The translations under genes and the position numbers were made by a program. 64,000 bases of DNA from a phage. The DNA lies in NCBI GenBank assembly GCA_036253495.1, contig GCA_036253495.1_4125.1; one strand, given 5' to 3'. Positions 38,665 through 64,000 of this stretch are shown here, piece after piece (the stretch's first letter is position 1; the number at the start of each line of letters is the position of its first letter). The notes under the pieces are model-generated. The model saw nothing but the letters and a program-made list of their open reading frames with translations. It had not been told where the DNA came from and did no database searches.

Positions 38665-39123
38665 ATGACAGTATTAGCTACCCAATTTAAACGAAATACA
38701 GAGCAACGTGAAGGTTACTTGAGTATCAGTGAAGTGGTTGAAGGAAACTTCAAACAATACATTTTCAATGCTTCTATTAAATTAAAAGCGACAAAATCTG
38801 ATAAAGATCGTGGCTTTACTAAGTGGGTGGCTTACTGGGAAGATTCACCTGTTGCAATTGAAATGACAGTAATGACAACAGTACTGGAAACTGGATACAT
38901 TAAAGCGACCATTGTAGATAAACAAGTACGAACCATTGATGAGATTGGTCCTTACCCAGCACGAAATTCTAAAGTATTTGGTAACTTGATTGATGGTAAG
39001 TTTATGTTGGATAAAGATGCACAAGTTTATGTGATGGATAAGGTAGAAAAAGCGGCAGCTAAAAAAGAAGTTGTAAATCAAAGTCAAATTGACTTAATCA
39101 AACAAGCATGGGGTTTAAAATGA
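38665..39123 (+). CDS. hypothetical protein
   Basis: GAGGAACC RBS. Confidence 0.55.
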   Translation: MTVLATQFKRNTEQREGYLSISEVVEGNFKQYIFNASIKLKATKSDKDRGFTKWVAYWEDSPVAIEMTVMTTVLETGYIKATIVDKQVRTIDEIGPYPARNSKVFGNLIDGKFMLDKDAQVYVMDKVEKAAAKKEVVNQSQIDLIKQAWGLK

Positions 39124-39563
39124 TTTCTATCAAATCCGTAAAATACATTTATCTTCTTGGTATTTTGTCTTGGTTTGCATTACCAGTACTGGACTTCTTT
39201 CAAGTCACAGATGGTAACAAGTACCAAACAGTAGTTTCAGTGTTTTCACTTTTATTTTTTCTTGGTGTCTTTTTTTCTAGTGCTTTTATGATCTTTAGTG
39301 ATGAAGACGATGCAAGACGTTTCTATGCAGTAGTTTTTGAATTTAAACACTATGGGTGGTATCTAACACTCCCGTTCATTCCATGTATCATTTATGCTTT
39401 CAACTATGAATACTATTCATATATGGGCATGGCAATGATTTTGTTTATTATCCTTGAACGTATGCGAACGGTTCAAAACAAGTTTGCACAGGAGTACGAA
39501 GACATGCAAACTGCGGAAGAGATACGTAGGAAGTCAATTCCAACAACAAAGGTAGATTTATAA
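39120..39563 (+). CDS. membrane protein
   Basis: ATGA overlap; several hydrophobic helices. Confidence 0.5.
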   Translation: MISIKSVKYIYLLGILSWFALPVLDFFQVTDGNKYQTVVSVFSLLFFLGVFFSSAFMIFSDEDDARRFYAVVFEFKHYGWYLTLPFIPCIIYAFNYEYYSYMGMAMILFIILERMRTVQNKFAQEYEDMQTAEEIRRKSIPTTKVDL

Positions 39564-39988
39564 TGAGAACATACTATAAACTATTACTCGCTCCCTTTTC
39601 ATTTGGTATTTTATGTCTAATCGACGTATTATGCACAAAGTATTCGATTAGTACAGTACTTAATCCAGCGTGGTTTACTATTGCTATTGTTGGATACTGT
39701 CTGTGTGCGGGTATGGCTGCTCTTATTACGTTACTAACAATTGCAATGGATAATGACGAGAAAGATAAAAACAGCTTTGCGAATGACTTTGGGTGGAAAA
39801 CGATCAGTTCAGTAACTATTGTACCATTTGCATTACTGACAGTTTATTTCATTCAAATGGGTGAGATCATTCCTGGTGTTGCATCATCAATACTTTTGTT
39901 AATGACAATAGTTGTTCGTTCACGACAAAATTCAATAATCCAAGAGTTTCTTGAACGAGAGGCAAGGGAAGGAACAAAAACATCTTGA
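39563..39988 (+). CDS. membrane protein
   Basis: TAATG overlap; several hydrophobic helices. Confidence 0.5.
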   Translation: MRTYYKLLLAPFSFGILCLIDVLCTKYSISTVLNPAWFTIAIVGYCLCAGMAALITLLTIAMDNDEKDKNSFANDFGWKTISSVTIVPFALLTVYFIQMGEIIPGVASSILLLMTIVVRSRQNSIIQEFLEREAREGTKTS

Positions 39989-49888: not shown

Positions 49889-50221
49889 ATGTTATCATTT
49901 ATTCTTTCTATCCCTTGTTTTGTTCTTCTTTTTGTATTACTTTTTGAAGCATTCCAGAAAGATGAAGAAGTTAAAAATGACCTACGTAAACTATTCAATC
50001 TGGATAGTCCAGTAGTTGGGATCTTTTATGTTTTAGTATGTGTGTATGCTGTTGTGTGGCTATTGGGCTTTTTATTACCACTATCTACTGTACTTGCATG
50101 GATTTCCGTTGTTGAAAATTTAGTAGCTATTGTATGGTTTATTCAATGTTTGTTTAGTGGTTTGGTTTCTGATTGGATTTTCTTACTTAAAGTGAAGTTT
50201 AAATCAAAATCTGATAAGTAA
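49889..50221 (+). CDS. membrane protein
   Basis: GAGGAA RBS; multiple hydrophobic helices. Confidence 0.5.
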   Translation: MLSFILSIPCFVLLFVLLFEAFQKDEEVKNDLRKLFNLDSPVVGIFYVLVCVYAVVWLLGFLLPLSTVLAWISVVENLVAIVWFIQCLFSGLVSDWIFLLKVKFKSKSDK

Positions 50222-51425: not shown

Positions 51426-51457
51426 GGTTGACTAACGTCAGCCTTTTTTGTTATACT
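51426..51457 (+). promoter_or_regulatory. terminator-promoter composite cassette
   Basis: Hairpin GGTTGAC-TAAC-GTCAGCC plus T6; embedded TTGACT 51428-51433 and TATACT 51452-51457. Confidence 0.55.
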
Positions 51458-51596
51458 GATCCCAATATGCTTGCATTTCTTCAAGTTGATGTATATGAAG
51501 AAAGTAATGGCGAACAGTATGTTAAACTTGTGATGATGCGTAAGGCAGCAAAACAGGCAACATTCGGTGGCTTGTGTAAATATGAGGACTAAACAT

Positions 51597-51788
51597 ATGT
51601 TGATTTATCAATGTGATAACATTCGTGTTATACAGCATCCCTACTTACAAATCTTTGATGTGCAGCAGTATATGGAAGGTGATGACCCAAGAACCTATGG
51701 TCGTAAGTATGATTACTTCACTGTAAAGCAGTGTCGTAACATCAAAGAAGTACGACAATTAGTTCAAGAACTTCAAAATAAAGGTTGA
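51597..51788 (+). CDS. hypothetical protein
   Basis: ATG 51597 after GAGGACT RBS; track start 51567 is a non-ATG codon. Confidence 0.45.
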   Translation: MLIYQCDNIRVIQHPYLQIFDVQQYMEGDDPRTYGRKYDYFTVKQCRNIKEVRQLVQELQNKG

Positions 51789-51814
51789 CTTCGGTCAGCC
51801 TTTTTTGTTATAAT
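51783..51814 (+). promoter_or_regulatory. terminator-promoter composite cassette
   Basis: Hairpin GGTTGAC-TTCG-GTCAGCC plus T6; embedded TTGACT 51785-51790 and TATAAT 51809-51814. Confidence 0.65.
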
Positions 51815-51843
51815 CATTTCATCTACTACTGGGGATTTTAATT

Positions 51844-52284
51844 ATGTATGTATATCGTTTTGAACTTAAATTCAGTTATATTGAACCTAACTTAGATCCT
51901 GCAAAAACAGTAGGACCGTTCGCACGGTACTCTTCGCGATACAGTACTAAAAATGGATTTGAACGTTTGTGTATGACTACACCTTCGCAATTCCAACCTG
52001 AGCCAACTGAAGATGGGATCTATTCAATCAAACGTGGCTGGGCATTTGGATGCCAAAGTTTAAACGACCTGTTCAGATTCTTTACAATGGACTTAGGTAA
52101 ACTTCATCGTTCAGGATTTTCTGTTTTTGTGTATGAAGTTCCTGATAACCATGTAGACATTGGACATAACCAAGTGCAGTACTATTGTGGTAGTGCAAAA
52201 CTACTTCGTATTATGTCAGTAAAGGAAGCTAAAGAAGAATTTCGTGCTACAAGATTTAATAAGGAAGAGATGGCATATGGATAA
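51844..52284 (+). CDS. hypothetical protein
   Basis: GGGGA RBS. Confidence 0.5.
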   Translation: MYVYRFELKFSYIEPNLDPAKTVGPFARYSSRYSTKNGFERLCMTTPSQFQPEPTEDGIYSIKRGWAFGCQSLNDLFRFFTMDLGKLHRSGFSVFVYEVPDNHVDIGHNQVQYYCGSAKLLRIMSVKEAKEEFRATRFNKEEMAYG

Positions 52285-52633
52285 AACATCAACACGATTT
52301 GCAAAGTTCTTGAGTTATGAGATACCACAAGATCCGTATTTCGACCAACGTGACGATGAAGATTACATAAAGTTAACTCGTGAACTACGAAATAAGTTCC
52401 AACAGATTTTAAGTTCATACACTAATACACATCCACATTTAAAGTACTTCATTAAGGCAGATATAGATTCAGATGATTCTGAACTATCATTCCTTGAATA
52501 CACAGTTGAGTGTGTTGGGTATGTACCTGATAATAGTGTAATTAATCACAACAAAATAAAGTTCGACTTGTACGTTATTTGTGTTATAATGAACTTAATT
52601 GCACAAATGAACAACTATTCAATAGGGGATTAA
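52277..52633 (+). CDS. hypothetical protein
   Basis: In-frame ATG 52277; start uncertain. Confidence 0.45.
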   Translation: MDKTSTRFAKFLSYEIPQDPYFDQRDDEDYIKLTRELRNKFQQILSSYTNTHPHLKYFIKADIDSDDSELSFLEYTVECVGYVPDNSVINHNKIKFDLYVICVIMNLIAQMNNYSIGD

Positions 52634-52897
52634 ATGAAACTGAAATTGAACTATCATGGTTTTCGTCTGCGTGATGATGTGGAGTTCCTTCGTCGCACAC
52701 CAGGTGCTGAGTTGTTTTTAACTGAAATGGGTGTCCCATTTAAAGTCGAGCACATTGGTGACAATGACTGCCTGGTATATGATAATCAACCGGATATCAA
52801 CGTTCCGTGGTATTCTGAACATATGTACATTGATATGGCGGCTCGCTACAACTGTACGTTTGAAATTACATCTAAAGGTATTGCTATTCAATTCTAA
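52634..52897 (+). CDS. hypothetical protein
   Basis: GGGGA RBS. Confidence 0.5.
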   Translation: MKLKLNYHGFRLRDDVEFLRRTPGAELFLTEMGVPFKVEHIGDNDCLVYDNQPDINVPWYSEHMYIDMAARYNCTFEITSKGIAIQF

Positions 52898-52918
52898 TAG
52901 TCTGATGGACACGAGTAA

Positions 52919-53143
52919 ATGAAATACATGCTGGTGGCATTAATGTTTGTGAGCACAATAGTACAAGCCAGAATCAAGTACTTTGTGAAGTGTACAAACG
53001 TTAGCGGTGGCTACACAGAGACATATCAGGGTAAGTCGGTTAAGATGGCAATACACAATGATAGAGGAACAGTGATTTTCCTTGTGAATGATATAATCAT
53101 TTTGTACAAACCAGATGTACCATGTGAAGTAAAAAGATATTAA
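52919..53143 (+). CDS. secreted hypothetical protein (signal peptide)
   Basis: N-terminal hydrophobic leader ending VQA-R. Confidence 0.5.
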   Translation: MKYMLVALMFVSTIVQARIKYFVKCTNVSGGYTETYQGKSVKMAIHNDRGTVIFLVNDIIILYKPDVPCEVKRY

Positions 53144-53148
53144 ACTAC

Positions 53149-53180
53149 GGGGTTGGCATAAGTCAGCCCTTTTGTATAAT
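53149..53180 (+). promoter_or_regulatory. terminator-promoter composite cassette (degenerate copy)
   Basis: Hairpin GGGTTGGC-ATAA-GTCAGCCC plus T4; TTGGCA 53153-53158 and TATAAT 53175-53180. Confidence 0.5.
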
Positions 53181-53188
53181 GGTGACTT

Positions 53189-53767
53189 ATGAACCGTAAA
53201 GGTAAGTTTAAAGTATCAAAGAAGAATAAAAGTGGAAGGTTCAATGATATATGCTTAGGTTTTATCAAAGCACACAATAAACTTTCTGCCCTGAGTAGAA
53301 AGATAGTATCTAACAAGATTGATATTAGATATATAAGTACTAACAATAGTACAGGGAAAGATGCACATCCAACTGAAAATATTATTTCAGTATCCTTCGT
53401 ATACGATGGTCTGGACATTACGATAGATGATTACAGACGATACGGTACTGGGTTTATACGTATCTATTGCAGAGATGCATCTGATAAGCCGGAACGTATT
53501 CGTATTATCGGTACATTGAGTGCTGGTATATTTGAGTGGGAGATTGTTCAACTTAAAACTATCGATGAGTACACCACAAGTTCTAATATTATTGAGTTGA
53601 ATTGCAATGTGAAAGACCTCCCAAACTTGAGCGAAGAAGAATATTTTCAAGAAAGCTTGCTAACGCCAAATTTGGATGATATAATTAAACAATATAAGAC
53701 GATGGTGTACTTCTTCAAATGTATCAAACCTAAGACTTGTTTGATGAATATTGTCCGTGATCTATAA
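53189..53767 (+). CDS. FQ-motif paralog family protein
   Basis: C-terminal LSEEEYFQESLLTPNLDDI module. Confidence 0.55.
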   Translation: MNRKGKFKVSKKNKSGRFNDICLGFIKAHNKLSALSRKIVSNKIDIRYISTNNSTGKDAHPTENIISVSFVYDGLDITIDDYRRYGTGFIRIYCRDASDKPERIRIIGTLSAGIFEWEIVQLKTIDEYTTSSNIIELNCNVKDLPNLSEEEYFQESLLTPNLDDIIKQYKTMVYFFKCIKPKTCLMNIVRDL

Positions 53768-53778
53768 CAGGAAAAAAT

Positions 53779-54210
53779 ATGTGGGTTAACGTTAATAGTA
53801 CTGAACTTAATGAAATTGATATCTTTGCATTTGTTAATCTGGAAACTGATACCTTTGTTCGTGGACGTTTGTTCATGAGTTCTTCCTGTGTTCGCAGTAT
53901 TGCAGTTATGGATGAACTCGGTCAGGTAATTGAGTGTCTACCATTACCTGCATGGGCATATAGCAGTACTGAAGAAGATGTAATGCATAAGATCTTTGAA
54001 GGTATCAATAAGCTACCTGGTGCAGATGTGAAGAATAAGATATTCAACATTGAGAATAAGAACTACAGTGCAGATGTACTGCGTCCTTTAGTTGATTCAG
54101 TACTGCAAGCTGCATTAGCTAAACCTAAGTGCATTATTTTAAAGTACATTCCAGAACTTTCCCTAACTAAAGAGGATATGAAAGGATTTATATTCTCATC
54201 GGAGTTGTGA
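53779..54210 (+). CDS. hypothetical protein
   Basis: ORF with ATG 53779. Confidence 0.5.
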   Translation: MWVNVNSTELNEIDIFAFVNLETDTFVRGRLFMSSSCVRSIAVMDELGQVIECLPLPAWAYSSTEEDVMHKIFEGINKLPGADVKNKIFNIENKNYSADVLRPLVDSVLQAALAKPKCIILKYIPELSLTKEDMKGFIFSSEL

Positions 54211-54434
54211 TGAAAAGGTATAAAATTGAATACCTACTTAAAGTAAGAGAGAAAAGTATTAGTAGTGAGAAATACACCAGTGAGATATTCGTCAGAGATG
54301 AGTATTACATTGGTGAAAATGAAGTTGAAGTACTGTTACAATGCATAGAAAATGAATTTCGAGATATGACACGTTATATGTCATTTGAGATATCGTGTGC
54401 AAAAGTTACATTCTTGAACAATACTTCATATTAA
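54210..54434 (+). CDS. hypothetical protein
   Basis: ATG 54210 overlapping upstream stop. Confidence 0.5.
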   Translation: MKRYKIEYLLKVREKSISSEKYTSEIFVRDEYYIGENEVEVLLQCIENEFRDMTRYMSFEISCAKVTFLNNTSY

Positions 54435-54438
54435 AAAA

Positions 54439-54478
54439 GGGTTGACTTTTGTTGACCCTTTTTGCTATTCTATAAATA
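54439..54478 (+). promoter_or_regulatory. terminator-promoter composite cassette with downstream TATAAATA (T4 late-promoter-like)
   Basis: Hairpin GGGTTGAC-TTTT-GTTGACCC plus T5; TTGACT 54442-54447; TATAAATA 54471-54478. Confidence 0.5.
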
Positions 54479-54524
54479 TAGACATAGAGAATATATAACA
54501 TGAAATCTATGGAGAGAAATCAAA

Positions 54525-56063
54525 ATGCCAGGTAAATTCACTGACAAAAACGGCGGCAATATGGCTGGACACTCTGATAAATGGAGTGATGAGAATCGTC
54601 GCAAAAATAGTTTCCAAGCGGGGCAAGGTTCCCGTGGCTCTCGCAACCAAGGAACGGGAGAAGCTGGGAAAGCAAACACAGTTGCATCACAGGGTCTTGA
54701 TACTTCAAACATGTCCCAGCATGAAAAATTGAAGTACTTCAATAGTCTTGGTCTTTTAAATCCGCAGCAGAAGCAACAACTTGCTGCTCTGGATAAAGCA
54801 CAAGAACAACCTAAAGCAGCACCTGAAGCACCTGCACAGCCTAAAGCGGCTAATCCGGTAAAAGAACTAAGTGATAAACTTGGGAAGATCTTTGCTAACA
54901 AACCACAACTAATTCAAGGTATCGTAAAAGCACTTCAAGCGGTTCCTAAAGAACAACTCAAGGATAAAGCACAAGCTGTTCTTGATAGTATGAAAGGGAA
55001 TACCAGTACTGAACCAACTGAAGTATTCAGTACTATCATGCGTGCACTTGAAGGTAAGCCACAGGCCGATGATGATATTGAGTTTGATGAACCTGCACAA
55101 GAAGTAGCAAATCTTGACTCAATCGTTTCTACATTTGGAAAAATTGGTGCAGAAGATAAGACTAATGCACAACAAGTTAAGAATGTACAAGCTAAGTTAC
55201 AAAATCGTCTTGAAGGTAAAGATGAAAAGATTAAACTTGCAGCAGATGCGTTGAAGAAAGCATTAGAATCATATAAACCTGGTGAGAAATCTCGCTTCAT
55301 TACTGCAATGAATGCAGTATTCGGTGCAATGAAAAAGTATGAAGCTGAACACGGTGAGAAAGTAACTCCTGATGGATATCTCCTTCGAAAAGATGAAGAA
55401 GGTGCTGTTGACCAGAAGGACGCTGAACCAGACTATGGTGATTTACCGGATACAGTTGATATGGATGGTTACATTCATCGTCCTGATATGCAAGAATTTG
55501 GTTCAGACAAAGAAGGTTTTGAACATGCTATGGCTGTGTACAAAGCATTAGTCGATAATCCACAATATGCAAATAGTTTTGTAGATGAGTTTGATAGTGC
55601 ATGGAACAACTACCAAGACAAAGGATATGATTTCCCAGCAGAAGCAGCATTCTTTGAACTAGGTAAACTTCTTGCTAAAAATGGTATTAATGTTGGTTCT
55701 AATGGTGAAGCAAACACTTCAGAAATGGACGCTGAATTGGCTAAAGATCGTGAAATGACTGATAAGTCAATTCATGAACTACAAAAGCTAATGATGTGGA
55801 TTGCTGAAATTGGTAAGAAAGCTGGTGCAGATCCTAAGAGCATTAACAGCAATATTAGTTGGATTAAACATAAGGTTGATAACAATGCCCGTAAATTACA
55901 AAAGGCATGGACCGACCTAGTGAATGGTGCAGACGATGTTGATATCGATTCACCGGAAGCATACGAGTACGCATTGAACACACTTGATAACTCTTTCCAG
56001 GATTACGAAAATGGTAACGTAACTGATTGGGAAAAGGATATCATGCATAAGTACGGTAAATGA
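54525..56063 (+). CDS. Ala/Lys/Gln-rich low-complexity protein (possible virion internal protein)
   Basis: 512-aa ORF, GC-richer codon usage than neighbours; flanked by strong terminator-promoter cassettes. Confidence 0.6.
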   Translation: MPGKFTDKNGGNMAGHSDKWSDENRRKNSFQAGQGSRGSRNQGTGEAGKANTVASQGLDTSNMSQHEKLKYFNSLGLLNPQQKQQLAALDKAQEQPKAAPEAPAQPKAANPVKELSDKLGKIFANKPQLIQGIVKALQAVPKEQLKDKAQAVLDSMKGNTSTEPTEVFSTIMRALEGKPQADDDIEFDEPAQEVANLDSIVSTFGKIGAEDKTNAQQVKNVQAKLQNRLEGKDEKIKLAADALKKALESYKPGEKSRFITAMNAVFGAMKKYEAEHGEKVTPDGYLLRKDEEGAVDQKDAEPDYGDLPDTVDMDGYIHRPDMQEFGSDKEGFEHAMAVYKALVDNPQYANSFVDEFDSAWNNYQDKGYDFPAEAAFFELGKLLAKNGINVGSNGEANTSEMDAELAKDREMTDKSIHELQKLMMWIAEIGKKAGADPKSINSNISWIKHKVDNNARKLQKAWTDLVNGADDVDIDSPEAYEYALNTLDNSFQDYENGNVTDWEKDIMHKYGK

Positions 56064-56072
56064 TAAAAAAGA

Positions 56073-56104
56073 GGTTGACTTCGGTCAGCCTTTTTTGCTA
56101 TAAT
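56073..56104 (+). promoter_or_regulatory. terminator-promoter composite cassette
   Basis: Hairpin GGTTGAC-TTCG-GTCAGCC plus T6; TTGACT 56075-56080 and TATAAT 56099-56104. Confidence 0.65.
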
Positions 56105-56131
56105 ACTCACATAACCTAAAGGAGAAACTCT

Positions 56132-56407
56132 ATGAACACATACGAACGTTTAGTTGGCTCAATGCGTTATGAAGAAATTTTAAGTGATATCGAAGAACTG
56201 AAAGACTCGAAAAGTTACATCCACTTAGATGAACTTATCGTGAAGTATGGGGAGGTTGGTGCAAAAGAATTAATTTGCTTTATGGTTCATGTTCGAAATT
56301 TAAATTACTTTGATCTTTCATCGAAGAACGGTGAACCGAATCTTTATTATCTATATTATTTGAAACATAAAGATGCATGTAATAAATTATTCTTAGAACT
56401 TTTATAA
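56132..56407 (+). CDS. hypothetical protein
   Basis: AAGGAGAA RBS. Confidence 0.5.
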   Translation: MNTYERLVGSMRYEEILSDIEELKDSKSYIHLDELIVKYGEVGAKELICFMVHVRNLNYFDLSSKNGEPNLYYLYYLKHKDACNKLFLELL

Positions 56408-56420
56408 CTGGAGATATCTA

Positions 56421-56681
56421 ATGCAAAACCCTGAATTGAAAATGTTTACACAAATCCGTCTTGCTCGTGTTGAACATGACACTAACTATGTACTGAACGA
56501 TGGTCCTCCACAACGCGTTGAAGTTGGTTATATTGACGTTGATAATTCACAATCTCTTCTGATTACCATTGGTTCTAACTCTTACAGTGTTGCTACACTG
56601 GAGAGTGTATTGTCCTTGGCACAATCCGCAAGGATTGCCCGTAACGCTCTTATGAACTGTGATGAACCTGATAATGAATGA
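56421..56681 (+). CDS. hypothetical protein
   Basis: GGAGAT RBS. Confidence 0.5.
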   Translation: MQNPELKMFTQIRLARVEHDTNYVLNDGPPQRVEVGYIDVDNSQSLLITIGSNSYSVATLESVLSLAQSARIARNALMNCDEPDNE

Positions 56682-57012
56682 TTATATGTATGAATTAAAC
56701 ATGATATCGTTTGTTTTATCGGGTATCGGATGGATGTACTATATGCTTGGGTATATTTTATTATTCTTCCGATACAATACATTCTACAAACGCTATTGGG
56801 ATGATGCACCAATTCACTTCTTCGCATTTGTATTCTTAACTATGGCAGTGGGTGAAGTACTGCTAACTGGTATCCAAAATACTGGTGGAATGATGTGCAC
56901 ACTAACAACATTCTTTGTTGTTTTTGGGACTGTAGTTTGGTTTTTCGCGTGGGGACTCTTCTCTTTGATTATGAAACTTGAGAAACTCCGAGACAAATTA
57001 CCAGAGCGTTGA
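56674..57012 (+). CDS. membrane protein
   Basis: ATG overlapping upstream stop; hydrophobic helices; start uncertain. Confidence 0.45.
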   Translation: MNDYMYELNMISFVLSGIGWMYYMLGYILLFFRYNTFYKRYWDDAPIHFFAFVFLTMAVGEVLLTGIQNTGGMMCTLTTFFVVFGTVVWFFAWGLFSLIMKLEKLRDKLPER

Positions 57013-57013
57013 T

Positions 57014-57041
57014 GAAAAGTATTTGACAAACTCAACTAGTA
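57014..57041 (+). promoter_or_regulatory. sigma70-type promoter with GTACTG-TATAAT extended -10
   Basis: TTGACA 57014-57019, TATAAT 57036-57041. Confidence 0.6.
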
Positions 57042-57097
57042 CTGTATAATGTTTATCAAGGGGATGAACTTCTCATCCCTACAATCGAGGAACTACC

Positions 57098-57652
57098 ATG
57101 ATTACTTTTAAGAAAACTGCCAACCACATCCATGAAATCTACATTAACGGTCACAAAGCTGGCCTTCTTCGTTTACTCGCCCATCATCCTGATGCTACCG
57201 TATCTGATAATGAACCTAAAGATTGGCGTGTCTTTTTCTTTGGGAAGTACAGTGATTTTCAAGTATCAAACCTGAAGAACATTCGTTCAGTATGCACGTT
57301 AACTGAAATTAAAGAAAAGTTAGCCAAAGCATTGAAAACTAATCCAGATGGTGTTCTTCCACCTGATAACTTTGTAGAGAAAGGATATGCCTTAGCTCAT
57401 TTCAAAGATGGTACTATTCAATCTATCAGTACTGAATATGAATACCAATGGACTGAGTACTTCACTTATGGCTCCCGTGATACTTTGATGGCTTCACGTA
57501 GTAAATTGGAAGAAGTACTGACTCGTATGAATGAACGCGAGCGTCAGTACTATGACAAACCAGAAATGTGGAGTTCAACTTACATTGACCGTATTGACTA
57601 TGTTATGATGACTCCAATCTTTGACACTGCTTACTATGATTCTTTGAAATAA
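57098..57652 (+). CDS. hypothetical protein
   Basis: GAGGAA RBS. Confidence 0.55.
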   Translation: MITFKKTANHIHEIYINGHKAGLLRLLAHHPDATVSDNEPKDWRVFFFGKYSDFQVSNLKNIRSVCTLTEIKEKLAKALKTNPDGVLPPDNFVEKGYALAHFKDGTIQSISTEYEYQWTEYFTYGSRDTLMASRSKLEEVLTRMNERERQYYDKPEMWSSTYIDRIDYVMMTPIFDTAYYDSLK

Positions 57653-57663
57653 GGATAACTTAT

Positions 57664-57840
57664 ATGAAACTACGTACTCGTAATCGACTGATGGATGCCC
57701 TATATCATGAACAGTGTTCATTAAATGAAGTAAAGCGTCAGTTAATGTACACATATCAGTTACCCGCTCGTGTTGCAAAACAACGTGCTAACGAATTGCT
57801 GAAAGAAGCAATCGAGTACTGGGAATCTGATTCGTACTAA
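57664..57840 (+). CDS. small hypothetical protein (58 aa)
   Basis: AAGGATAA RBS; below ORF-track cutoff. Confidence 0.4.
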   Translation: MKLRTRNRLMDALYHEQCSLNEVKRQLMYTYQLPARVAKQRANELLKEAIEYWESDSY

Positions 57841-57879
57841 TATTACGTGATATGTCACGTTAATTAAGTGAGGCGATAA

Positions 57880-58131
57880 ATGAAAATTTTATTAGTTCTA
57901 ATACTACTAATTGTTTTACCATTTACTTTAGTATCCCCTGAACTTGCATGGAATGTGTTTGTGTACTTAGTATGTACTATTGTAGTAAATGGTATCTTGT
58001 TCTTAGTTCTATTCATAAATGGAATAGGACACGGTGGAGGATGGACCAGTACTGCTGATATTGTACATAAAACCACTATGTCTTTATTTGTAGTGTGGAA
58101 TTTATTCTGGACTTGGTTTGTGTTCTTCTAA
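57880..58131 (+). CDS. small membrane protein
   Basis: GAGGCG RBS; hydrophobic helices. Confidence 0.5.
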   Translation: MKILLVLILLIVLPFTLVSPELAWNVFVYLVCTIVVNGILFLVLFINGIGHGGGWTSTADIVHKTTMSLFVVWNLFWTWFVFF

Positions 58132-58140
58132 TTAAAAAAT

Positions 58141-58512
58141 ATGAATATAGATTTGAAAGGTGCAACACGAACTGTCATACTCATTGGGGAATATGCTATC
58201 AAGATTCCAACCTTCAAAAGCTGGAAGTTATTCCTAATTGGAATGATAGCTAACCTCAATGAACGCTCATGGATGCAGTACTCCAAGCGTAGTGATAGTG
58301 GGATATGTCCTACTCTGTGGTCATCGCGAACTGGCTTAATAACAGTACAGAAACGTTGTAAGCCAGTACAACATAGGGGTTTGTTTTGGGTGGAGTTGAG
58401 TGCATTAGCATTGAATTCAGAGTTGAGTACTGACTTCTTCTATTCAGATGCGAAGCCAGAAAACTTTGGATATTTGAATGGTAAGTTAGTTAAGCTTGAT
58501 TATGGAGATTGA
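58141..58512 (+). CDS. mini protein-kinase-like ORF
   Basis: G-rich loop then AIK; later DAKPEN and LDYGD resembling catalytic-loop and DFG-type motifs; only 123 aa. Confidence 0.4.
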   Translation: MNIDLKGATRTVILIGEYAIKIPTFKSWKLFLIGMIANLNERSWMQYSKRSDSGICPTLWSSRTGLITVQKRCKPVQHRGLFWVELSALALNSELSTDFFYSDAKPENFGYLNGKLVKLDYGD

Positions 58513-58597
58513 TAAGTTTATGGAAATTGTTTTAATCGTTGCATTTGTTACATTAGTATGTACTACCATTTAATATATTTTACGAGGATAATGTGAA

Positions 58598-58927
58598 ATG
58601 AAAAAACTACTAACTATTTTAGTACTATCTGCTATTACGTTGACGGCTGGATGTACCGTTAAAAAAGATTTATTCCCTGTTGGTGGAAGTAAAGCTGATG
58701 GTGTTATTAGGCTTGGATACACATTCGACCAGCGATCTGAAATTCCATTAATTGATTTGGAACAGGGATTGTATGTAGCTACTAAACGATGCCAAAAGTG
58801 GGGATATTCAGGTGCTGAAATTTTTGGTGGCTCCACAACAATGTGTTCTGACCAACGTCCACTGGGGTGTGTTGCAACAAATGTCACATATGAATATCAA
58901 TGTACTGGTGACTTAAAAGAAAAATAA
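58598..58927 (+). CDS. putative lipoprotein
   Basis: GAGGATAA RBS; signal peptide with lipobox-like LTAGC. Confidence 0.55.
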   Translation: MKKLLTILVLSAITLTAGCTVKKDLFPVGGSKADGVIRLGYTFDQRSEIPLIDLEQGLYVATKRCQKWGYSGAEIFGGSTTMCSDQRPLGCVATNVTYEYQCTGDLKEK

Positions 58928-58937
58928 TCTTTTACAT

Positions 58938-58970
58938 GGGTTGACTTCGTTCAGCCCTTTTTGCTATAAT
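58938..58970 (+). promoter_or_regulatory. terminator-promoter composite cassette
   Basis: Hairpin GGGTTGA...TCAGCCC plus T5; TTGACT 58941-58946 and TATAAT 58965-58970. Confidence 0.65.
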
Positions 58971-58998
58971 TATTTCATCAAGACGAGAGGATGAATAC

Positions 58999-59436
58999 AT
59001 GACCCGCATTAACTTAGTACACGTTAAAGAACTTGCTGACCAACATCTGATGGCTGAATATCGTGAACTTCCACGTGTATTTGGTGCTGTACAAAAACAT
59101 GTTCAAGCACGTAAGCGTGTACGTGATTTCAAAATTAACAGTACTTATCTGTTAGGTTCAGGTCATGTAACATTCTTCTACGACAAGTTACTATACTTAC
59201 AGAAGCGTCATATTGATATTGTTAACGAATGTTTGCGTCGTGGTATGAAGATTCAAAACACTGAAGTAAACGACATTAGCGGCTTCCCTGCTGAGTTTTG
59301 TAATGACTACGTACCATCGGAGTCCGAGATTAAAACATCACGCGAGCGTTTGATTGAGAAGCTTCAGATGAAGCCTAAGTGGTATAAGTTTACTGATGTT
59401 GAGCTACCTATATATTATGTTGATATGATACAATGA
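58999..59436 (+). CDS. denV: endonuclease V (pyrimidine-dimer DNA glycosylase/AP lyase), T4 DenV homolog
   Basis: Near-identical N-terminal block MTRINL...[21 protein letters not shown] and [10 protein letters not shown] core match T4 endonuclease V as I recall it; GAGAGG RBS. Confidence 0.9.
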
Positions 59437-59660
59437 ATGATGAAGAATTCAAAAAATATGCGATTGCGAAGCTTGATTCATACAAGTCACGCGAAACGTA
59501 TAAATTTAATCCTGATAAAACAAAAGCATCTATAAGATGGATGATTAATTCACCCAAATATACATTTGACGAAAAATATTCATGGATAGTGCAATGTAGT
59601 GATTATGAGGATTTGGTATATAATATTAAACTGTGTTGGTATGAATACAACAATAAATGA
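59433..59660 (+). CDS. hypothetical protein
   Basis: ATGA overlap with denV. Confidence 0.5.
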
Positions 59661-59666
59661 TATAAG

Positions 59667-59699
59667 GGGTTGACTTCGGTCAGCCCTTTTTGCTATAAT
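59667..59699 (+). promoter_or_regulatory. terminator-promoter composite cassette
   Basis: Hairpin GGGTTGAC-TTCG-GTCAGCCC plus T5; TTGACT 59670-59675 and TATAAT 59694-59699. Confidence 0.7.
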
Positions 59700-59725
59700 C
59701 ATTTCATCAACTCAAGAGGTAATAC

Positions 59726-59965
59726 ATGAAACTATCTTTTATACGTTTAGCAGAATTCTTCGGTACTGATATAATTACTTTACAACAAATTGCAGACAAT
59801 ACTTCATTAAGCACACAAGAAGTACTTGACTTAGATGTGATAGAGTGTGATAATACTTCTATCGATTATAAAGAAGGTCTTGTCGAAAAAGATAAGATTC
59901 AGGCTAAGATTAATGGTGCTGGACGGGTTCAGTACTGGAAAGGGGTTTTAAGTAATGCGTGTTGA
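59726..59965 (+). CDS. hypothetical protein
   Basis: GAGG RBS. Confidence 0.5.
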   Translation: MKLSFIRLAEFFGTDIITLQQIADNTSLSTQEVLDLDVIECDNTSIDYKEGLVEKDKIQAKINGAGRVQYWKGVLSNAC

Positions 59966-61289
59966 TATTAAAGTACCTTTTAAATGTGAACCACTGAAAT
60001 TTGTCCAAGATTATGAAATATCTAAAACTATCGAATTTAGTGAAACCGCTTCAAAACTTGATATTAGTAGGAAAATTTTAGGTGAAAAGTATCCAGATGT
60101 AATATGGGATGATTTCAATCCATATAATATGGAAAAAGATGAAATGTGTAAAGACGAAATTATTGGCTTTGTTCGTATGGGAGTTCAAAATCTAAAATAT
60201 TATGCATATATATGTCAAAAATGCTCGACAAATTCAAAACAAAATGGTTTAGGTATATTTTTTACATTAAAAAGATATATTAAAAATAAAATTACATGTA
60301 TGTGCTCAAAAACACCACTATATACAAATTATCAACGAACTATACAACTTCATAATAAATCTATAAGTTTAGGTTATGTGTTTATTGGATATAATAAAGA
60401 AAAACAAATAACTTCGGATGCTAAAATAAAACTAGGATGTTATAATCATGGTATGTGGGATACTATAACAATAAATTCGTATAACACCAACTCACGCGGC
60501 TGTTCAAAATGTGCTGGTGTTCATTCACCATCACAGGAAGAAGCAAATGAAAAAATAAAACAAATTTGTAATGAAAATAAATTAGTATTTCAACCTTTCC
60601 TATATAAAAATAATAAAACTAAAATTTTTGTAAGATGTTTGGTATGTAATGAATCATGGGAGTCAAACTATTTTAAACTTTATACCATGAAATATGGTTG
60701 CCAACGTTGTGTAGGAACAAAAAAGTTAACTACTGAGATTTCTACAGGAATTGTATCAGATTATTGTACAAAATATAAGTTGACTTTCATTCCATTTGTG
60801 TATGATAATAATAAGATGAAAATATCTCTACGTTGTGATATTTGTTCACATGAATGGATAACACCATTCAATGGTATTACTAATAGAATGGGGTGTCCAA
60901 GATGTAATCCAACTGAAGCAATACGTATTTCTAAAGATTTAGATCCATTAATAGATGATTTTCAGCCGGAAAAGAAATTCCTTGAACTTGGAAAGATGCG
61001 ATTTGATAGATTCAGTCAACGATTAAACATTCTGTTTGAATATGATGGGGAACAACACTTTATTTCCAATAGGGTTTGGCATTCTACTACATCTAAGTTT
61101 GAATCTTCTCGTGAACGTGACAGTATAAAAACAGAATACGCAATAAAAAATGGATATAACTTCATTCGTATTGCGTATTATGAAGACCATATTGGAGCAT
61201 TGAAATCTTTCCTTAAACTCATTGAAGAGAATCCAGGAAAGCAAATCGTACAGATCTATGGTGATGTTCAAATCTTAGACAAGAAATAA
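59955..61289 (+). CDS. putative homing-type endonuclease with tandem Zn-ribbon repeats and C-terminal Vsr/DUF559-like nuclease domain
   Basis: Repeated CxxC modules (CQKC, CSKC, CQRC, CPRC) in about 45-aa repeats; C-terminal FDRFSQRLNILFEYDGEQHF...RDSIKTEYAIKNGYNFIRIAY. Confidence 0.55.
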   Translation: MRVDIKVPFKCEPLKFVQDYEISKTIEFSETASKLDISRKILGEKYPDVIWDDFNPYNMEKDEMCKDEIIGFVRMGVQNLKYYAYICQKCSTNSKQNGLGIFFTLKRYIKNKITCMCSKTPLYTNYQRTIQLHNKSISLGYVFIGYNKEKQITSDAKIKLGCYNHGMWDTITINSYNTNSRGCSKCAGVHSPSQEEANEKIKQICNENKLVFQPFLYKNNKTKIFVRCLVCNESWESNYFKLYTMKYGCQRCVGTKKLTTEISTGIVSDYCTKYKLTFIPFVYDNNKMKISLRCDICSHEWITPFNGITNRMGCPRCNPTEAIRISKDLDPLIDDFQPEKKFLELGKMRFDRFSQRLNILFEYDGEQHFISNRVWHSTTSKFESSRERDSIKTEYAIKNGYNFIRIAYYEDHIGALKSFLKLIEENPGKQIVQIYGDVQILDKK

Positions 61290-61299
61290 CAATACAAAA

Positions 61300-61332
61300 G
61301 GGTTGACTTCGGTCAGCCCTTTTTGCTATAAT
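61300..61332 (+). promoter_or_regulatory. terminator-promoter composite cassette
   Basis: Hairpin GGGTTGAC-TTCG-GTCAGCCC plus T5; TTGACT 61303-61308 and TATAAT 61327-61332. Confidence 0.7.
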
Positions 61333-61360
61333 TATTTCATCAACTGATGAGGACAACGAA

Positions 61361-62131
61361 ATGACCAGAGAAGCACGCAGCATTCAAATTCAGAAAAACT
61401 TCAACTCCATGATGGTTGCTCTTGAGTGTTTGCTCGATGATAGCAGTACTGTAAAAAGTATGGTTGTCAGCGGTGCTCCTGGTGTTGGTAAGACTTACAC
61501 CCTCTCTAAACGCCTCCAGAAAGCACATGACGCGGCAGAATGGAACGTAGCTACCATCAGTGGTAAAATGACCACTCTGGCTCTGTACGAAGTTCTGTAC
61601 AAGAATCGTCATAGCACCAACGTGTTAGTACTGGATGATATGGACAGCATCTTTGATTCAGAAGACGGTATGAACCTGCTCAAAGCAGTACTGGATAGTG
61701 GCAAGCGTACTGTTTCTTATATGACTAGCTCGAAGTATCTGAGCAGCAACGGTATCCCTAACAGCTTTGATTTTAATGGTCGCATCGTATTCATTACTAA
61801 CAAAGATTTAGCACTGAATGCTAAAGCTAAAACTAAAATGTCTGCTCACTATGCTGCTCTTATGTCTCGCTCTGTATACGTTGACTTACAGATCCAGACC
61901 AAAAGCGATATCATGATTCACATTGAGAACGTGATGAACCAGACCAACATTCTGGAATCTAAGGGTATTAACAGTAATGGTAGTAAAGCAATCCTGAACT
62001 GGATGTTGAAGCACGAAGATTCACTTCGTTCACCTTCACTGCGTATGCCACTGTTGATTTCGGCAGTATATAACAACAACCCATACGATTGGGAAGAGCA
62101 ATGTGAAAACTTGTTCCTGGAGAAAAATTAA
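61361..62131 (+). CDS. P-loop NTPase (AAA-like ATPase)
   Basis: Walker A GAPGVGKT, Walker B VLVLDDMD; GC-richer codon usage (CTG, CGT, ACC) than neighbours. Confidence 0.65.
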   Translation: MTREARSIQIQKNFNSMMVALECLLDDSSTVKSMVVSGAPGVGKTYTLSKRLQKAHDAAEWNVATISGKMTTLALYEVLYKNRHSTNVLVLDDMDSIFDSEDGMNLLKAVLDSGKRTVSYMTSSKYLSSNGIPNSFDFNGRIVFITNKDLALNAKAKTKMSAHYAALMSRSVYVDLQIQTKSDIMIHIENVMNQTNILESKGINSNGSKAILNWMLKHEDSLRSPSLRMPLLISAVYNNNPYDWEEQCENLFLEKN

Positions 62132-62158
62132 TTGATAACATATAACATCGATAAGGTC

Positions 62159-62350
62159 ATGTTATTATATGCATGTATTAACATGATTGTCGTTTTAGTT
62201 AAAGTTTATAGATGGTTTCATACACTTGATATTGATACTGAAAAGGAGTATAATCCTCAAGAAGCACCACTGGGTTTAAAAGTTATTGTTTTAATTACTG
62301 TAGTGTCTGTATACATGGTATTACTATCAACTATGATTAAGTTCACTTAA
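62159..62350 (+). CDS. small membrane protein
   Basis: ATG 62159 (track start 62132 is TTG); hydrophobic helices. Confidence 0.4.
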   Translation: MLLYACINMIVVLVKVYRWFHTLDIDTEKEYNPQEAPLGLKVIVLITVVSVYMVLLSTMIKFT

Positions 62351-62360
62351 CGAGGAACAT

Positions 62361-62693
62361 ATGATTAATTTATTTTCAACTGAGGTTATGATTAAAATTA
62401 CATTAGTATACATGTGTCTATTCGTATACTACCACGCTCTCATCGGAATCTTGTGGTTCTTTAAGAAAGGTCGTCTTCTTGAGAAATTGTACCCAGACTA
62501 TATGATATTGTATACAATTGTCCAGGGTGTAGGAATAGTACTGGGAATTCTAGTGCACTTGATATATTTGTTTGAACCACACCTTCCGTGTATTACACAA
62601 TACATTGTATTCGGAACTACTATTATGTGGCTTGTAATGATGGGTGTGTATGGTCTGTATTTGTACAGGAAACGTATAGTGGGAGATTTCTAA
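62361..62693 (+). CDS. small multi-TM membrane protein (tandem paralog array)
   Basis: GAGGAA RBS; WFFKKGRLLE motif. Confidence 0.5.
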   Translation: MINLFSTEVMIKITLVYMCLFVYYHALIGILWFFKKGRLLEKLYPDYMILYTIVQGVGIVLGILVHLIYLFEPHLPCITQYIVFGTTIMWLVMMGVYGLYLYRKRIVGDF

Positions 62694-63046
62694 TGCAAGA
62701 GATTATAAAATGGTTGACAACCAGTGATATTGCTAGTACACTGAACTATGTACTCATTATCTTATATCCGTTTTTGATGGTTCTAAACTTCATTGGATGG
62801 TATTTCAAACGTCCAATTTACTACAAGATTAATAATTCAGAGTACTATGAAAGTGTTGTAATTGCAACCTCAATCACGTATACTATGGGTGCAGTTCTTA
62901 CAGTCATAGGATTAGGTCAAGGTGATAATCTTAACTTTATGCTATGTACCTTTGTTATGATATGTATTCCAACACTAATTGTAATTCTATCGAATATTGT
63001 GTGGAAAAAAATGTTATTTGCACGCAACAAAATACCGGAGGCATAA
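62693..63046 (+). CDS. small multi-TM membrane protein (tandem paralog array)
   Basis: TAATG overlap; WYFKRPIYY motif. Confidence 0.5.
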   Translation: MQEIIKWLTTSDIASTLNYVLIILYPFLMVLNFIGWYFKRPIYYKINNSEYYESVVIATSITYTMGAVLTVIGLGQGDNLNFMLCTFVMICIPTLIVILSNIVWKKMLFARNKIPEA

Positions 63047-63381
63047 TGGAGTACTTTATCAGTTTACTACCGTGGTACTTGAAAGTAAGTACAATTTACT
63101 ACATCATTTCCGCTGGGTTTTATTTCTTGATGTGGTTCTTTAAACGTCCAATCAGTGAATTCATCGATAATAATCTGTTGGATGTTAAACTTCACTGCTG
63201 GTTTTGGACATCGACTGTGATGCCATTCATCCATTACGGAATTATCAGTACTGGTAACCGTTCTAATGGTGAAATCATTTCCTTTGGTTTTTACTGGATA
63301 TCGACTATTGTTTACATTGGTGTGCTTTTGTATCCATTTGTAGTTAAACTACGAAACTCTATCCCAGATCACAGGAAATAA
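63046..63381 (+). CDS. small multi-TM membrane protein (tandem paralog array)
   Basis: TAATG overlap; WFFKRPISE motif. Confidence 0.5.
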   Translation: MEYFISLLPWYLKVSTIYYIISAGFYFLMWFFKRPISEFIDNNLLDVKLHCWFWTSTVMPFIHYGIISTGNRSNGEIISFGFYWISTIVYIGVLLYPFVVKLRNSIPDHRK

Positions 63382-63382
63382 T

Positions 63383-63703
63383 ATGAAGATTGAATTGATT
63401 CTTTTCACAGTAAGTGCATTCTACTTTTGGGTTTGCTGGATTGGTTTTCTCTTTGCACTAAAACCATTTGACTTCTATGCAAAGCAGTGTAAAAATGCTG
63501 CTGTTGGTAATGTAGCTTTTACATTGCTTAGTACATTATGGGTAGTACTGCTTATATTCAATCCACCTGATAATGATTTGGAAATGTCATTGTGTACATT
63601 ATTTGCAGTCCTGTGTGTATTCGCAGCATTCTGTAGTTATATTGGAAAGTTATGTTCTTTGGTATCAAATTTCCATCGTAAACAAAAAGATAAGAGGGTA
63701 TAA
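63383..63703 (+). CDS. small multi-TM membrane protein
   Basis: ATG 63383; hydrophobic helices. Confidence 0.5.
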   Translation: MKIELILFTVSAFYFWVCWIGFLFALKPFDFYAKQCKNAAVGNVAFTLLSTLWVVLLIFNPPDNDLEMSLCTLFAVLCVFAAFCSYIGKLCSLVSNFHRKQKDKRV

Positions 63704-64000
63704 TGTACACAACAATATATGTTATTCTTAATATCCTAATTGCATTTCTAACAATAGGTGCATTACTATACATTGGAAAGTTCTTTTGTGTAAAGTTCGT
63801 CGAAGATGTGTATGATGATATTGAATCCGACTACGAATCTAAGTGCTTCTTCCATGTTGGATATATCATTTGCTTAGTAACCACTATCCTCACATGGATT
63901 GTATACGTATTCGGGATTGGAATCACTTCAATTGGTGAACCAGTACTGTGCATTATTGGATTAGTGTTTTCTTCAATGTTCGGGTTATTGTTCATGATTA
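63703..64000 (+). CDS. small membrane protein, 3' end truncated by window edge
   Basis: TAATG overlap; ORF runs to window end. Confidence 0.45.
   Translation, partial: MYTTIYVILNILIAFLTIGALLYIGKFFCVKFVEDVYDDIESDYESKCFFHVGYIICLVTTILTWIVYVFGIGITSIGEPVLCIIGLVFSSMFGLLFMI

Follow-up and report, generated by a model that had tools for sequence, protein, structure and literature searches.

A Conserved Array of Small Membrane Protein Paralogs in Asteriusvirus and Related Jumbo Phages

Introduction

Early in infection, phage T4 makes the proteins Imm, with two helices, and Sp, with a single N-terminal helix. Class I holins, of the lambda S type, are about 100 amino acids long, with three helices, an N-out/C-in topology and a charged C-terminal tail. 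According to the T4 record, Imm (83 amino acids) and Sp (97 amino acids) are each encoded by a single-copy gene and act at the cell envelope, where Imm changes the membrane such that superinfecting DNA is kept out and Sp is annotated as periplasmic. The present study concerns an array of genes for small hydrophobic proteins at positions 62159-64000 of a 64,000-nucleotide stretch of phage DNA (NCBI GenBank assembly GCA_036253495.1, contig GCA_036253495.1_4125.1); the whole stretch is hereafter termed the window. The same kind of job as that of Imm and Sp is proposed for the array proteins, which, unlike the two T4 proteins, are encoded as seven to nine paralogs with three predicted helices in one operon.

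The initial annotation of the window compared the array with small inner-membrane proteins of T-even phages. A T-even origin was rejected, as positions 61300-64000 match Escherichia phage A4, the closest record, at 98.6% identity, and A4 is an Asteriusvirus whose genome spans 355 kb. One tie to T4 is an ATPase gene upstream of the array, whose product is 38% identical to NrdC.10; in T4-like phages, this AAA-type protein has no known function (PMC1524935). Judged by its sequence, the window comes from an Asteriusvirus jumbo coliphage of the 121Q/PBECO4/RaK2-like group.

The array proteins already appear in public catalogues: PHROGs 19454, 19046, 27396, 33258 and 26405, all of unknown function, hold the same proteins, one PHROG per position in the array, as do "membrane protein" annotations in the phages RaK2, K64-1 and Serratia phage BF. 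Whereas these catalogues list separate unknown families, the analysis presented here joins the groups into one paralog family within a conserved operon. No description of the array was found in the literature on the phages Sharanji, fEgEco12, phAPEC6, RaK2, CBB and PA5oct, or in a jumbo-phage comparative review.

Organization of the Array

Six tightly packed open reading frames (ORFs) for small hydrophobic proteins fill positions 62159-64000 on the + strand. They are listed below with the letter of their positional group where they have one; these and all other ORF coordinates include the stop codon.

62159-62350, + strand: w1, an orphan ORF of 63 amino acids with two hydrophobic segments
62361-62693, + strand: w2, position A, 110 amino acids, three transmembrane segments, motif WFFKKGR, C-terminal tail YRKRIVGDF; phrog_19454 (E = 4.6e-21)
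62693-63046, + strand: w3, position B, 117 amino acids, three transmembrane segments, motif WYFKRP, C-terminal tail ending in ARNKIPEA; phrog_19046
63046-63381, + strand: w4, position C, 111 amino acids, motif WFFKRPIS, C-terminal tail KLRNSIPDHRK; phrog_27396 (E = 1.7e-46)
63383-63703, + strand: w5, position D, 106 amino acids, three transmembrane segments, C-terminal tail FHRKQKDKRV; phrog_33258
63703 to beyond the window end (64000), + strand: w6, position E, 99 amino acids visible, with a 127-amino-acid ortholog, A4_232, in phage A4; phrog_26405

ORF calls and hydrophobicity counts agree on this run of consecutive genes, which the initial annotation had already singled out. Hydrophobic segments were counted on the Kyte-Doolittle scale with a threshold, which gave two segments for w1, three each for w2, w3, w5 and w6, and one for w4 (its other two best windows stay below the threshold, at 1.52 and 0.95), the best conserved member of the array. 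At least two such segments are present in 16 of the approximately 139 non-overlapping + strand ORFs of the window, and the array supplies five of its six genes to this count, w4 falling narrowly below the threshold. With so few ORFs passing, six membrane protein genes in a row indicate that the cluster is non-random.

The initial annotation also described a shared W-[FY]-F-K-[RK] motif. A six-frame translation of the whole 64-kb window contains exactly three matches to W[FY]FK[RK], at 62454, 62798 and 63133, which fall in w2, w3 and w4, respectively; shuffled windows contain a mean of 0.03. Stop and start codons overlap as TAATG at w2/w3, w3/w4 and w5/w6, in line with the annotation. The same did not hold at w4/w5, where the junction reads TAATATG, or between w1 and w2, which are separated by 10 nucleotides. 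A Shine-Dalgarno-like purine run lies 5' of each array start codon.

The array extends past the end of the window. In A4, the remainder of w6 (127 amino acids in all) is followed by two more members of 117 and 127 amino acids, A4_233 and A4_234 (positions F and G), and then by a gene for a 183-amino-acid DUF1190/YgiB-like lipoprotein.

One Diverged Paralog Family

For the comparison of array members, 57 proteins from eight Asteriusvirus array sets were clustered by BLAST. They fall into seven positional ortholog groups, A to G, which are present in all eight sets in constant order. Profile comparison with hhalign links B to C (95%), E to F (81%), A to B (76%) and E to G (69%), and more weakly C to E and D to G (32% each), against reversed-sequence controls of at most 5.6%. 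The links are transitive, some pairs having no direct link, and cross-hits of the family hidden Markov model (HMM) among members range from 7.7e-6 to 3.7e-3. All 57 sequences can be placed in one collinear alignment, in which a single Phe, at the predicted cytoplasmic end of helix 1, is invariant. These comparisons indicate that w2-w6, together with A4_233 and A4_234, form one diverged, anciently duplicated paralog family.

The paralogy proposed in the initial annotation thus extends to w2-w6 and stops short of w1, which reaches only E = 0.049 against the superfamily HMM, has a tblastn relative only in phage A4 and lacks the three-helix architecture; its membership in the family is accordingly unsupported. 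Between the window and A4, w1 carries four silent and four replacement changes, and the A4 record labels its ortholog A4_227 (locus extract L001, 9833-10051) "endonuclease V".

A further member, counted as the ninth beside eight for the complete A4 array, lies 5 kb upstream of the array:

56659-57012, + strand: solitary paralog "H", 116-117 amino acids, three transmembrane segments, C-terminal tail KLRDKLPER; superfamily HMM E = 2.5e-7

Paralog H is linked by hhalign to family A at 85% and to family B at 84%, with reversed controls below 1%. Its homologs, located by tblastn, comprise two tandem genes in 121Q (gp207 and gp208) and three in the BF17 locus; the annotated 121Q neighbor gp209 may be a third H homolog in that phage. 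Two other loci encode proteins of a similar kind. At 39108-39988 (+ strand), an adjacent pair of small membrane proteins of 151 and 141 amino acids shows weak mutual similarity (23% identity, E = 5e-4), and at 49889-50221 (+ strand) a 110-amino-acid protein with three helices and a basic tail matches the family HMM at only E = 0.13.

Predicted Architecture

Throughout the family (w2-w6, A4_233, A4_234 and their orthologs in eight Asteriusvirus phages, w1 being excluded), members are about 105-127 amino acids long, with three predicted helices and a Lys/Arg-rich C-terminal tail. The multi-pass character described by the initial annotation is retained, and its range of two to four hydrophobic helices narrows to a usual architecture of three. 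Mean Lys+Arg counts are 0.5 for the N-terminus, 2.9 for loop 1, 0.5 for loop 2 and 4.5 for the C-terminal tail; from this distribution and the positive-inside rule, an N-out/C-in topology is predicted, so that the topology check recommended with the annotation returned a consistent layout for the family. An AlphaFold2 model of w3, with a mean predicted local distance difference test (pLDDT) score of 77, places helices at residues 12-38, 50-74 and 80-111, consistent with the predicted layout. Conservation by region shows no sharp pattern (0.57 for helix 1 and loop 1, 0.42-0.46 for helices 2 and 3).

Searches for relatives outside the family were negative. A Foldseek search of the w3 model against PDB and BFVD returned a best E of 1.3 and generic helical bundles only, and Pfam, NCBIfam and PADLOC scans of all array proteins gave nothing significant.

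Promoter Module and Inferred Timing

Upstream of the array lie the following features:

61300..61332, + strand: hairpin and sigma-70-like promoter module; hairpin GGGTTGAC-TTCG-GTCAGCCC, then a T-run
61361..62131, + strand: NrdC.10-type AAA/P-loop ATPase, 256 amino acids; phrog_1250 (E = 1e-103), weak AAA Pfam matches
51428, 51785, 56075, 58941, 59670 and 61303, + strand: sites of the promoter module, spanning 51428-61332

The -35 element TTGACT (61303-61308) sits within the terminator-like hairpin stem, and the extended -10 element TGcTATAAT ends at 61332, 28 nucleotides ahead of the ATPase start. The module sequence TTGACTTCGGTCAGCCCTTTTTGCTATAAT occupies 61303-61332; its 30-nucleotide pattern, TTGACTTCGGTCAGCC(C/T)TTTTTG(C/T)TATAAT, occurs at six sites in the window, all on the + strand, against 0.14 expected. 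Twelve related loci, that of RaK2 among them, carry the module in a relaxed form approximately 28-29 nucleotides 5' of the ATPase start. We infer that the ATPase is the first gene of the transcription unit. In A4, no terminator-like site was found before the array end, and a strong terminator-like hairpin follows the lipoprotein gene.

The ATPase is a clear homolog of T4 NrdC.10 (BLASTP, 38% identity over 239 amino acids, E = 1e-57) and is 70% identical to RaK2 ORF307 and 46% identical (BLASTP) to Serratia phage BF gp390; with PADLOC, it gave weak P-loop matches only. In T4, nrdC.10 is not followed by the array family. T4 NrdC.7 was considered as a relative of the array proteins and rejected on sequence inspection, being a different type of membrane protein.

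Further promoter-like sites within the array are weaker. A consensus scan returned several of them, and the conserved module is not repeated there. At 62226-62254 (+ strand), inside w1 and approximately 100 nucleotides before w2, the sequence TTGATA-17-TATAAT (11 of 12 matches, kept in A4) could either serve as an internal promoter or have arisen by chance in AT-rich DNA.

The T4-type late motif TATAAATA has one site in the window (54471-54478), against 10.5 +/- 3.3 expected from shuffles, and none near the array, a depletion consistent with a region of early genes. The phAPEC6 orthologs, gp012c-gp018c, are absent from the phAPEC6 virion proteome table. In the related phage CBB, RpoD-like promoters mark a presumed early region of short genes (PMC5259590). 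Taken together, the sigma-70-type module, the depletion of the late motif, the absence from the virion table and the early region of CBB point to early expression, by the host polymerase, of proteins that are probably non-structural.

These signals bear on whether the array encodes holin- or antiholin-like proteins that set the timing of lysis. In size (approximately 100-130 amino acids), three predicted helices, predicted N-out/C-in topology and basic C-terminal tail, the family answers the description of class I holins, and yet its promoter is of the sigma-70 type, with no TATAAATA motif nearby, where a class I holin calls for late expression and linkage to an endolysin. No endolysin gene adjoins the array: the predicted endolysin of 121Q, gp532, is encoded far from its array genes, gp224-232 (PMC5259590). 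Seven to nine holin copies would also be unprecedented, no holin match was obtained in Pfam or PHROG, and hhalign against lambda S gave 0.23%. Control of lysis timing is thus regarded as very improbable.

Conservation Across Three Genera

Three genera share the conserved gene set: Asteriusvirus, Alcyoneusvirus (RaK2) and Eneladusvirus (Serratia phage BF). The RaK2 locus has the same promoter, the ATPase, one soluble ORF, eight members (B, B', A, C, D, E, G and an F-like one) and the DUF1190 lipoprotein, whereas in Serratia phage BF the ATPase, five members and the lipoprotein are followed by RCC1-like genes on the opposite strand. The DUF1190/YgiB-like lipoprotein gene ends the array in A4, RaK2 and BF, at these coordinates in the respective locus extracts:

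12526-13077 in L001 (A4): DUF1190/YgiB-like lipoprotein gene
6794-7390 in L012 (RaK2): DUF1190/YgiB-like lipoprotein gene
6449-7084 in L016 (Serratia phage BF): DUF1190/YgiB-like lipoprotein gene

A YgiB-like lipoprotein has also been noted in the T4-like phage Moon (PMC4319498). In the 121Q lineage, the lipoprotein gene is missing and a 219-amino-acid protein is encoded in its place.

Beyond these genera the family is scarce. A search with w4 returned nine clusters among 5.8 billion proteins, and the family profile returned 13; in a full HMMER scan, 25 of 1.84 billion representatives matched the family, all of about 50-130 amino acids. Among ten matching clusters that were looked up, the single named one belongs to Serratia and Erwinia jumbo phages.

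Copy number varies around this conserved frame. Position A occurs twice in 121Q, G17 and SHEFM2K and as a truncated gene in UE-S1, position B is duplicated in RaK2, and position D is duplicated in Turkey5 and frameshifted in 121Q, where the annotated genes gp228 and gp229 are together one frameshifted D-position gene (L002, 9259-9574). An apparent loss of the F-position gene from PBECO4 and UE-S1 was rejected, since the genes are intact and merely unannotated (F-position in L003, L009 and L015); the phAPEC6 record has a matching unannotated gap at the F-position.

Conserved order raises the possibility that the paralogs are subunits of a hetero-oligomeric inner-membrane assembly, a channel or scaffold. 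Together with the DUF1190 lipoprotein and the NrdC.10-type ATPase, this assembly would make up an envelope module that RaK2-like jumbo phages need to infect normally. The sequence of promoter, ATPase, array and lipoprotein is kept in three genera, all seven positions occur in every Asteriusvirus examined, and the stop/start overlaps suggest coupled, balanced translation. Set against this are the variable number of members (five in BF, eight or nine elsewhere) with the duplications, truncation and frameshift just described, the occurrence of NrdC.10 in T4 without the array, and the absence of the lipoprotein gene from the 121Q lineage. The bearing of selection and recombination on this assembly is taken up below.

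Allelic Divergence and Recombination

Between the window and 121Q, the ATPase is 98% identical in amino acid sequence, with a synonymous divergence (dS) of 0.33, whereas the array proteins are 27-67% identical, with dS saturated; nucleotide similarity breaks off at the ATPase stop codon. Three deep classes of the cassette can be distinguished, namely, window/A4, the 121Q group and Turkey5/JNE01, and at several positions their mutual distance is about equal to their distance from RaK2. Asteriusvirus ATPases themselves fall into two deep allele classes with 58% identity (window gene at 61361-62131; L006 and L009 genes), a wider separation than that between the window and RaK2 ATPases (70%). ATPase and array alleles assort independently; for example, the UE-S1 array is of the 121Q type and its ATPase of the Turkey5 type. 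Individual array genes have also diverged to different extents, with 121Q and BF17 sharing 92% identity at position C and 63% at position G.

Over longer timescales, the array has evolved under purifying selection: where dS could be measured, the ratio of nonsynonymous to synonymous divergence (dN/dS) was mostly 0.1-0.5, compared with 0.02-0.04 for the ATPase. Such constraint would suit the multi-subunit assembly described above. The free recombination of alleles between ATPase and array and within the array speaks against it, as co-evolved interfaces should disfavor recombination. On balance, an assembly of this kind is considered unlikely, if still worth serious attention. Independent allele assortment, together with the changes in copy number, argues instead for proteins that act individually.

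Over the short distance between the window and A4, the array carries 22 replacement and 2 silent changes, compared with 12 and 31 in sixteen flanking genes (Fisher p = 4e-7); six of the 12 flanking replacements fall in solitary paralog H (6 replacement, 2 silent). Among other close phage pairs, two of three show the same direction more weakly, with an odds ratio of about 4. Within w4, codons 43-48 (63172-63189) hold seven nucleotide changes relative to A4 in six codons (NNLLDV versus NHMMSF), a cluster that points to a short patch of conversion or a local hot spot where loop 1 meets helix 2.

Divergence of this kind could also arise if the array genes were membrane "filler" under loose constraint, minor or redundant in role, lying in a recombination hot spot and diverging through weak constraint on their helices. 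Many replacements relative to A4 exchange I, L, V, M and F for one another within helices, the array replacement rate (0.017 per site) is near the silent rate of the flanks (0.023 per site), and the neighboring RCC1-like genes also lie inside the divergence island. Against loose constraint, orthologs of every position persist across genera with intact frames, conserved motifs and the dN/dS values given above, and the divergence breaks at the ATPase stop codon. Moreover, a neighboring gene at 57880-58131 (+ strand) encodes an 83-amino-acid protein with two hydrophobic segments that is 97.6-100% conserved in A4, BF17, 121Q, G17, phAPEC6 and Turkey5; divergence is therefore not general to small membrane proteins in this region. 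Filler genes are accordingly held to be a doubtful explanation.

Neighboring Genes

On its upstream side, the operon promoter is adjoined by a gene at 59955-61289 (+ strand) for a 444-amino-acid protein with CapR/DUF4379 zinc-finger repeats that resembles a homing endonuclease. This slot differs between the window, A4 (where the protein has 565 amino acids) and other relatives. Farther upstream, a stretch of approximately 420 nucleotides that is missing from the A4 locus contains the gene for a YecR-like lipoprotein (58598-58927, + strand; Pfam PF13992, E = 9e-22). A tblastn search of 17 related loci, in which the corresponding region of seven other Asteriusvirus genomes is represented, did not recover the gene, which has the look of a host-type envelope gene inserted in this lineage only.

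Possible Functions of the Array

The reading favored here is that of individually acting, early inner-membrane effectors at a conflict interface, serving either the exclusion of rival phages or counter-defence. It is put forward tentatively, as somewhat short of an even chance. Host RNA polymerase would transcribe the operon early in infection, and the array proteins would insert into the host inner membrane, where each paralog would act on its own target and not as a subunit of one co-adapted machine. With targets at a conflict interface, the proteins would block DNA entry or envelope steps of competing phages, by means unrelated to T4 Imm or Sp; alternatively, within the same reading, they would neutralize membrane-acting host defences. 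Such targets would account both for deeply diverged, freely recombining allele classes and for the predominance of amino acid changes between near-identical phages.

An exclusion or immunity role, as suggested by the initial annotation, is a plausible candidate. The sigma-70-type promoter without a late motif, the predicted inner-membrane location, the absence from the virion table and the allelic divergence with its replacement excess all count in its favor. Within the favored reading, exclusion is preferred; taken by itself, it is possible and yet on the unlikely side. Counter-defence or takeover of the host membrane is a slimmer, doubtful prospect.

Several observations weigh against individually acting effectors of conflict. 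Pfam, NCBIfam, PHROG and PADLOC searches and hhalign comparison with T4 Imm and Sp revealed no homology to characterized exclusion, immunity or anti-defence proteins: the family profile scored 0.12% against Imm and 0.12% against Sp, no immunity match was found in Pfam or PHROG at E <= 1, and no PHROG match is annotated as exclusion or immunity. The seven positions date from before the split of the genera and have all been retained, in nearly the same order and without turnover, while classic accessory exclusion genes are more sporadic; stable retention of this kind is fitted equally well by a core function or a complex. The replacement excess is absent between 121Q and G17, and the ratio of 22 to 2 departs only marginally from neutrality when the silent rate of the array itself is the reference (binomial p = 0.09). 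The conservative character of many replacements within helices means that they could be nearly neutral, and the extension of the divergence island beyond the array into the RCC1-like genes means that part of the divergence may stem from a regional recombination hot spot. Finally, the early timing is read from promoter motifs only.

A more specific form of the exclusion role can be envisaged, in which the cassette would be a multi-gene compatibility or exclusion system, each paralog gating a different step in the passage of rivals through the envelope. The allele classes, close in age to the genera and brought into new combinations by recombination at gene boundaries, would serve as balanced self/non-self types and determine which related jumbo phages can share a cell. 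This proposal is speculative and, as a whole, improbable.

Implications for Jumbo Phage Biology

In jumbo phages of 350 kb, the majority of genes lack an assigned function. Here, at least five "unknown" families are merged into one conserved, probably early membrane module, whose clear allele classes can be swapped and directly tested. If the paralogs do work as a complex with the NrdC.10-type ATPase, the module would provide a first route to the function of a gene whose conservation reaches from T4 to RaK2. If they instead control superinfection or disarm host defences, the array proteins would affect competition among jumbo phages and the performance of these phages in therapeutic cocktails.

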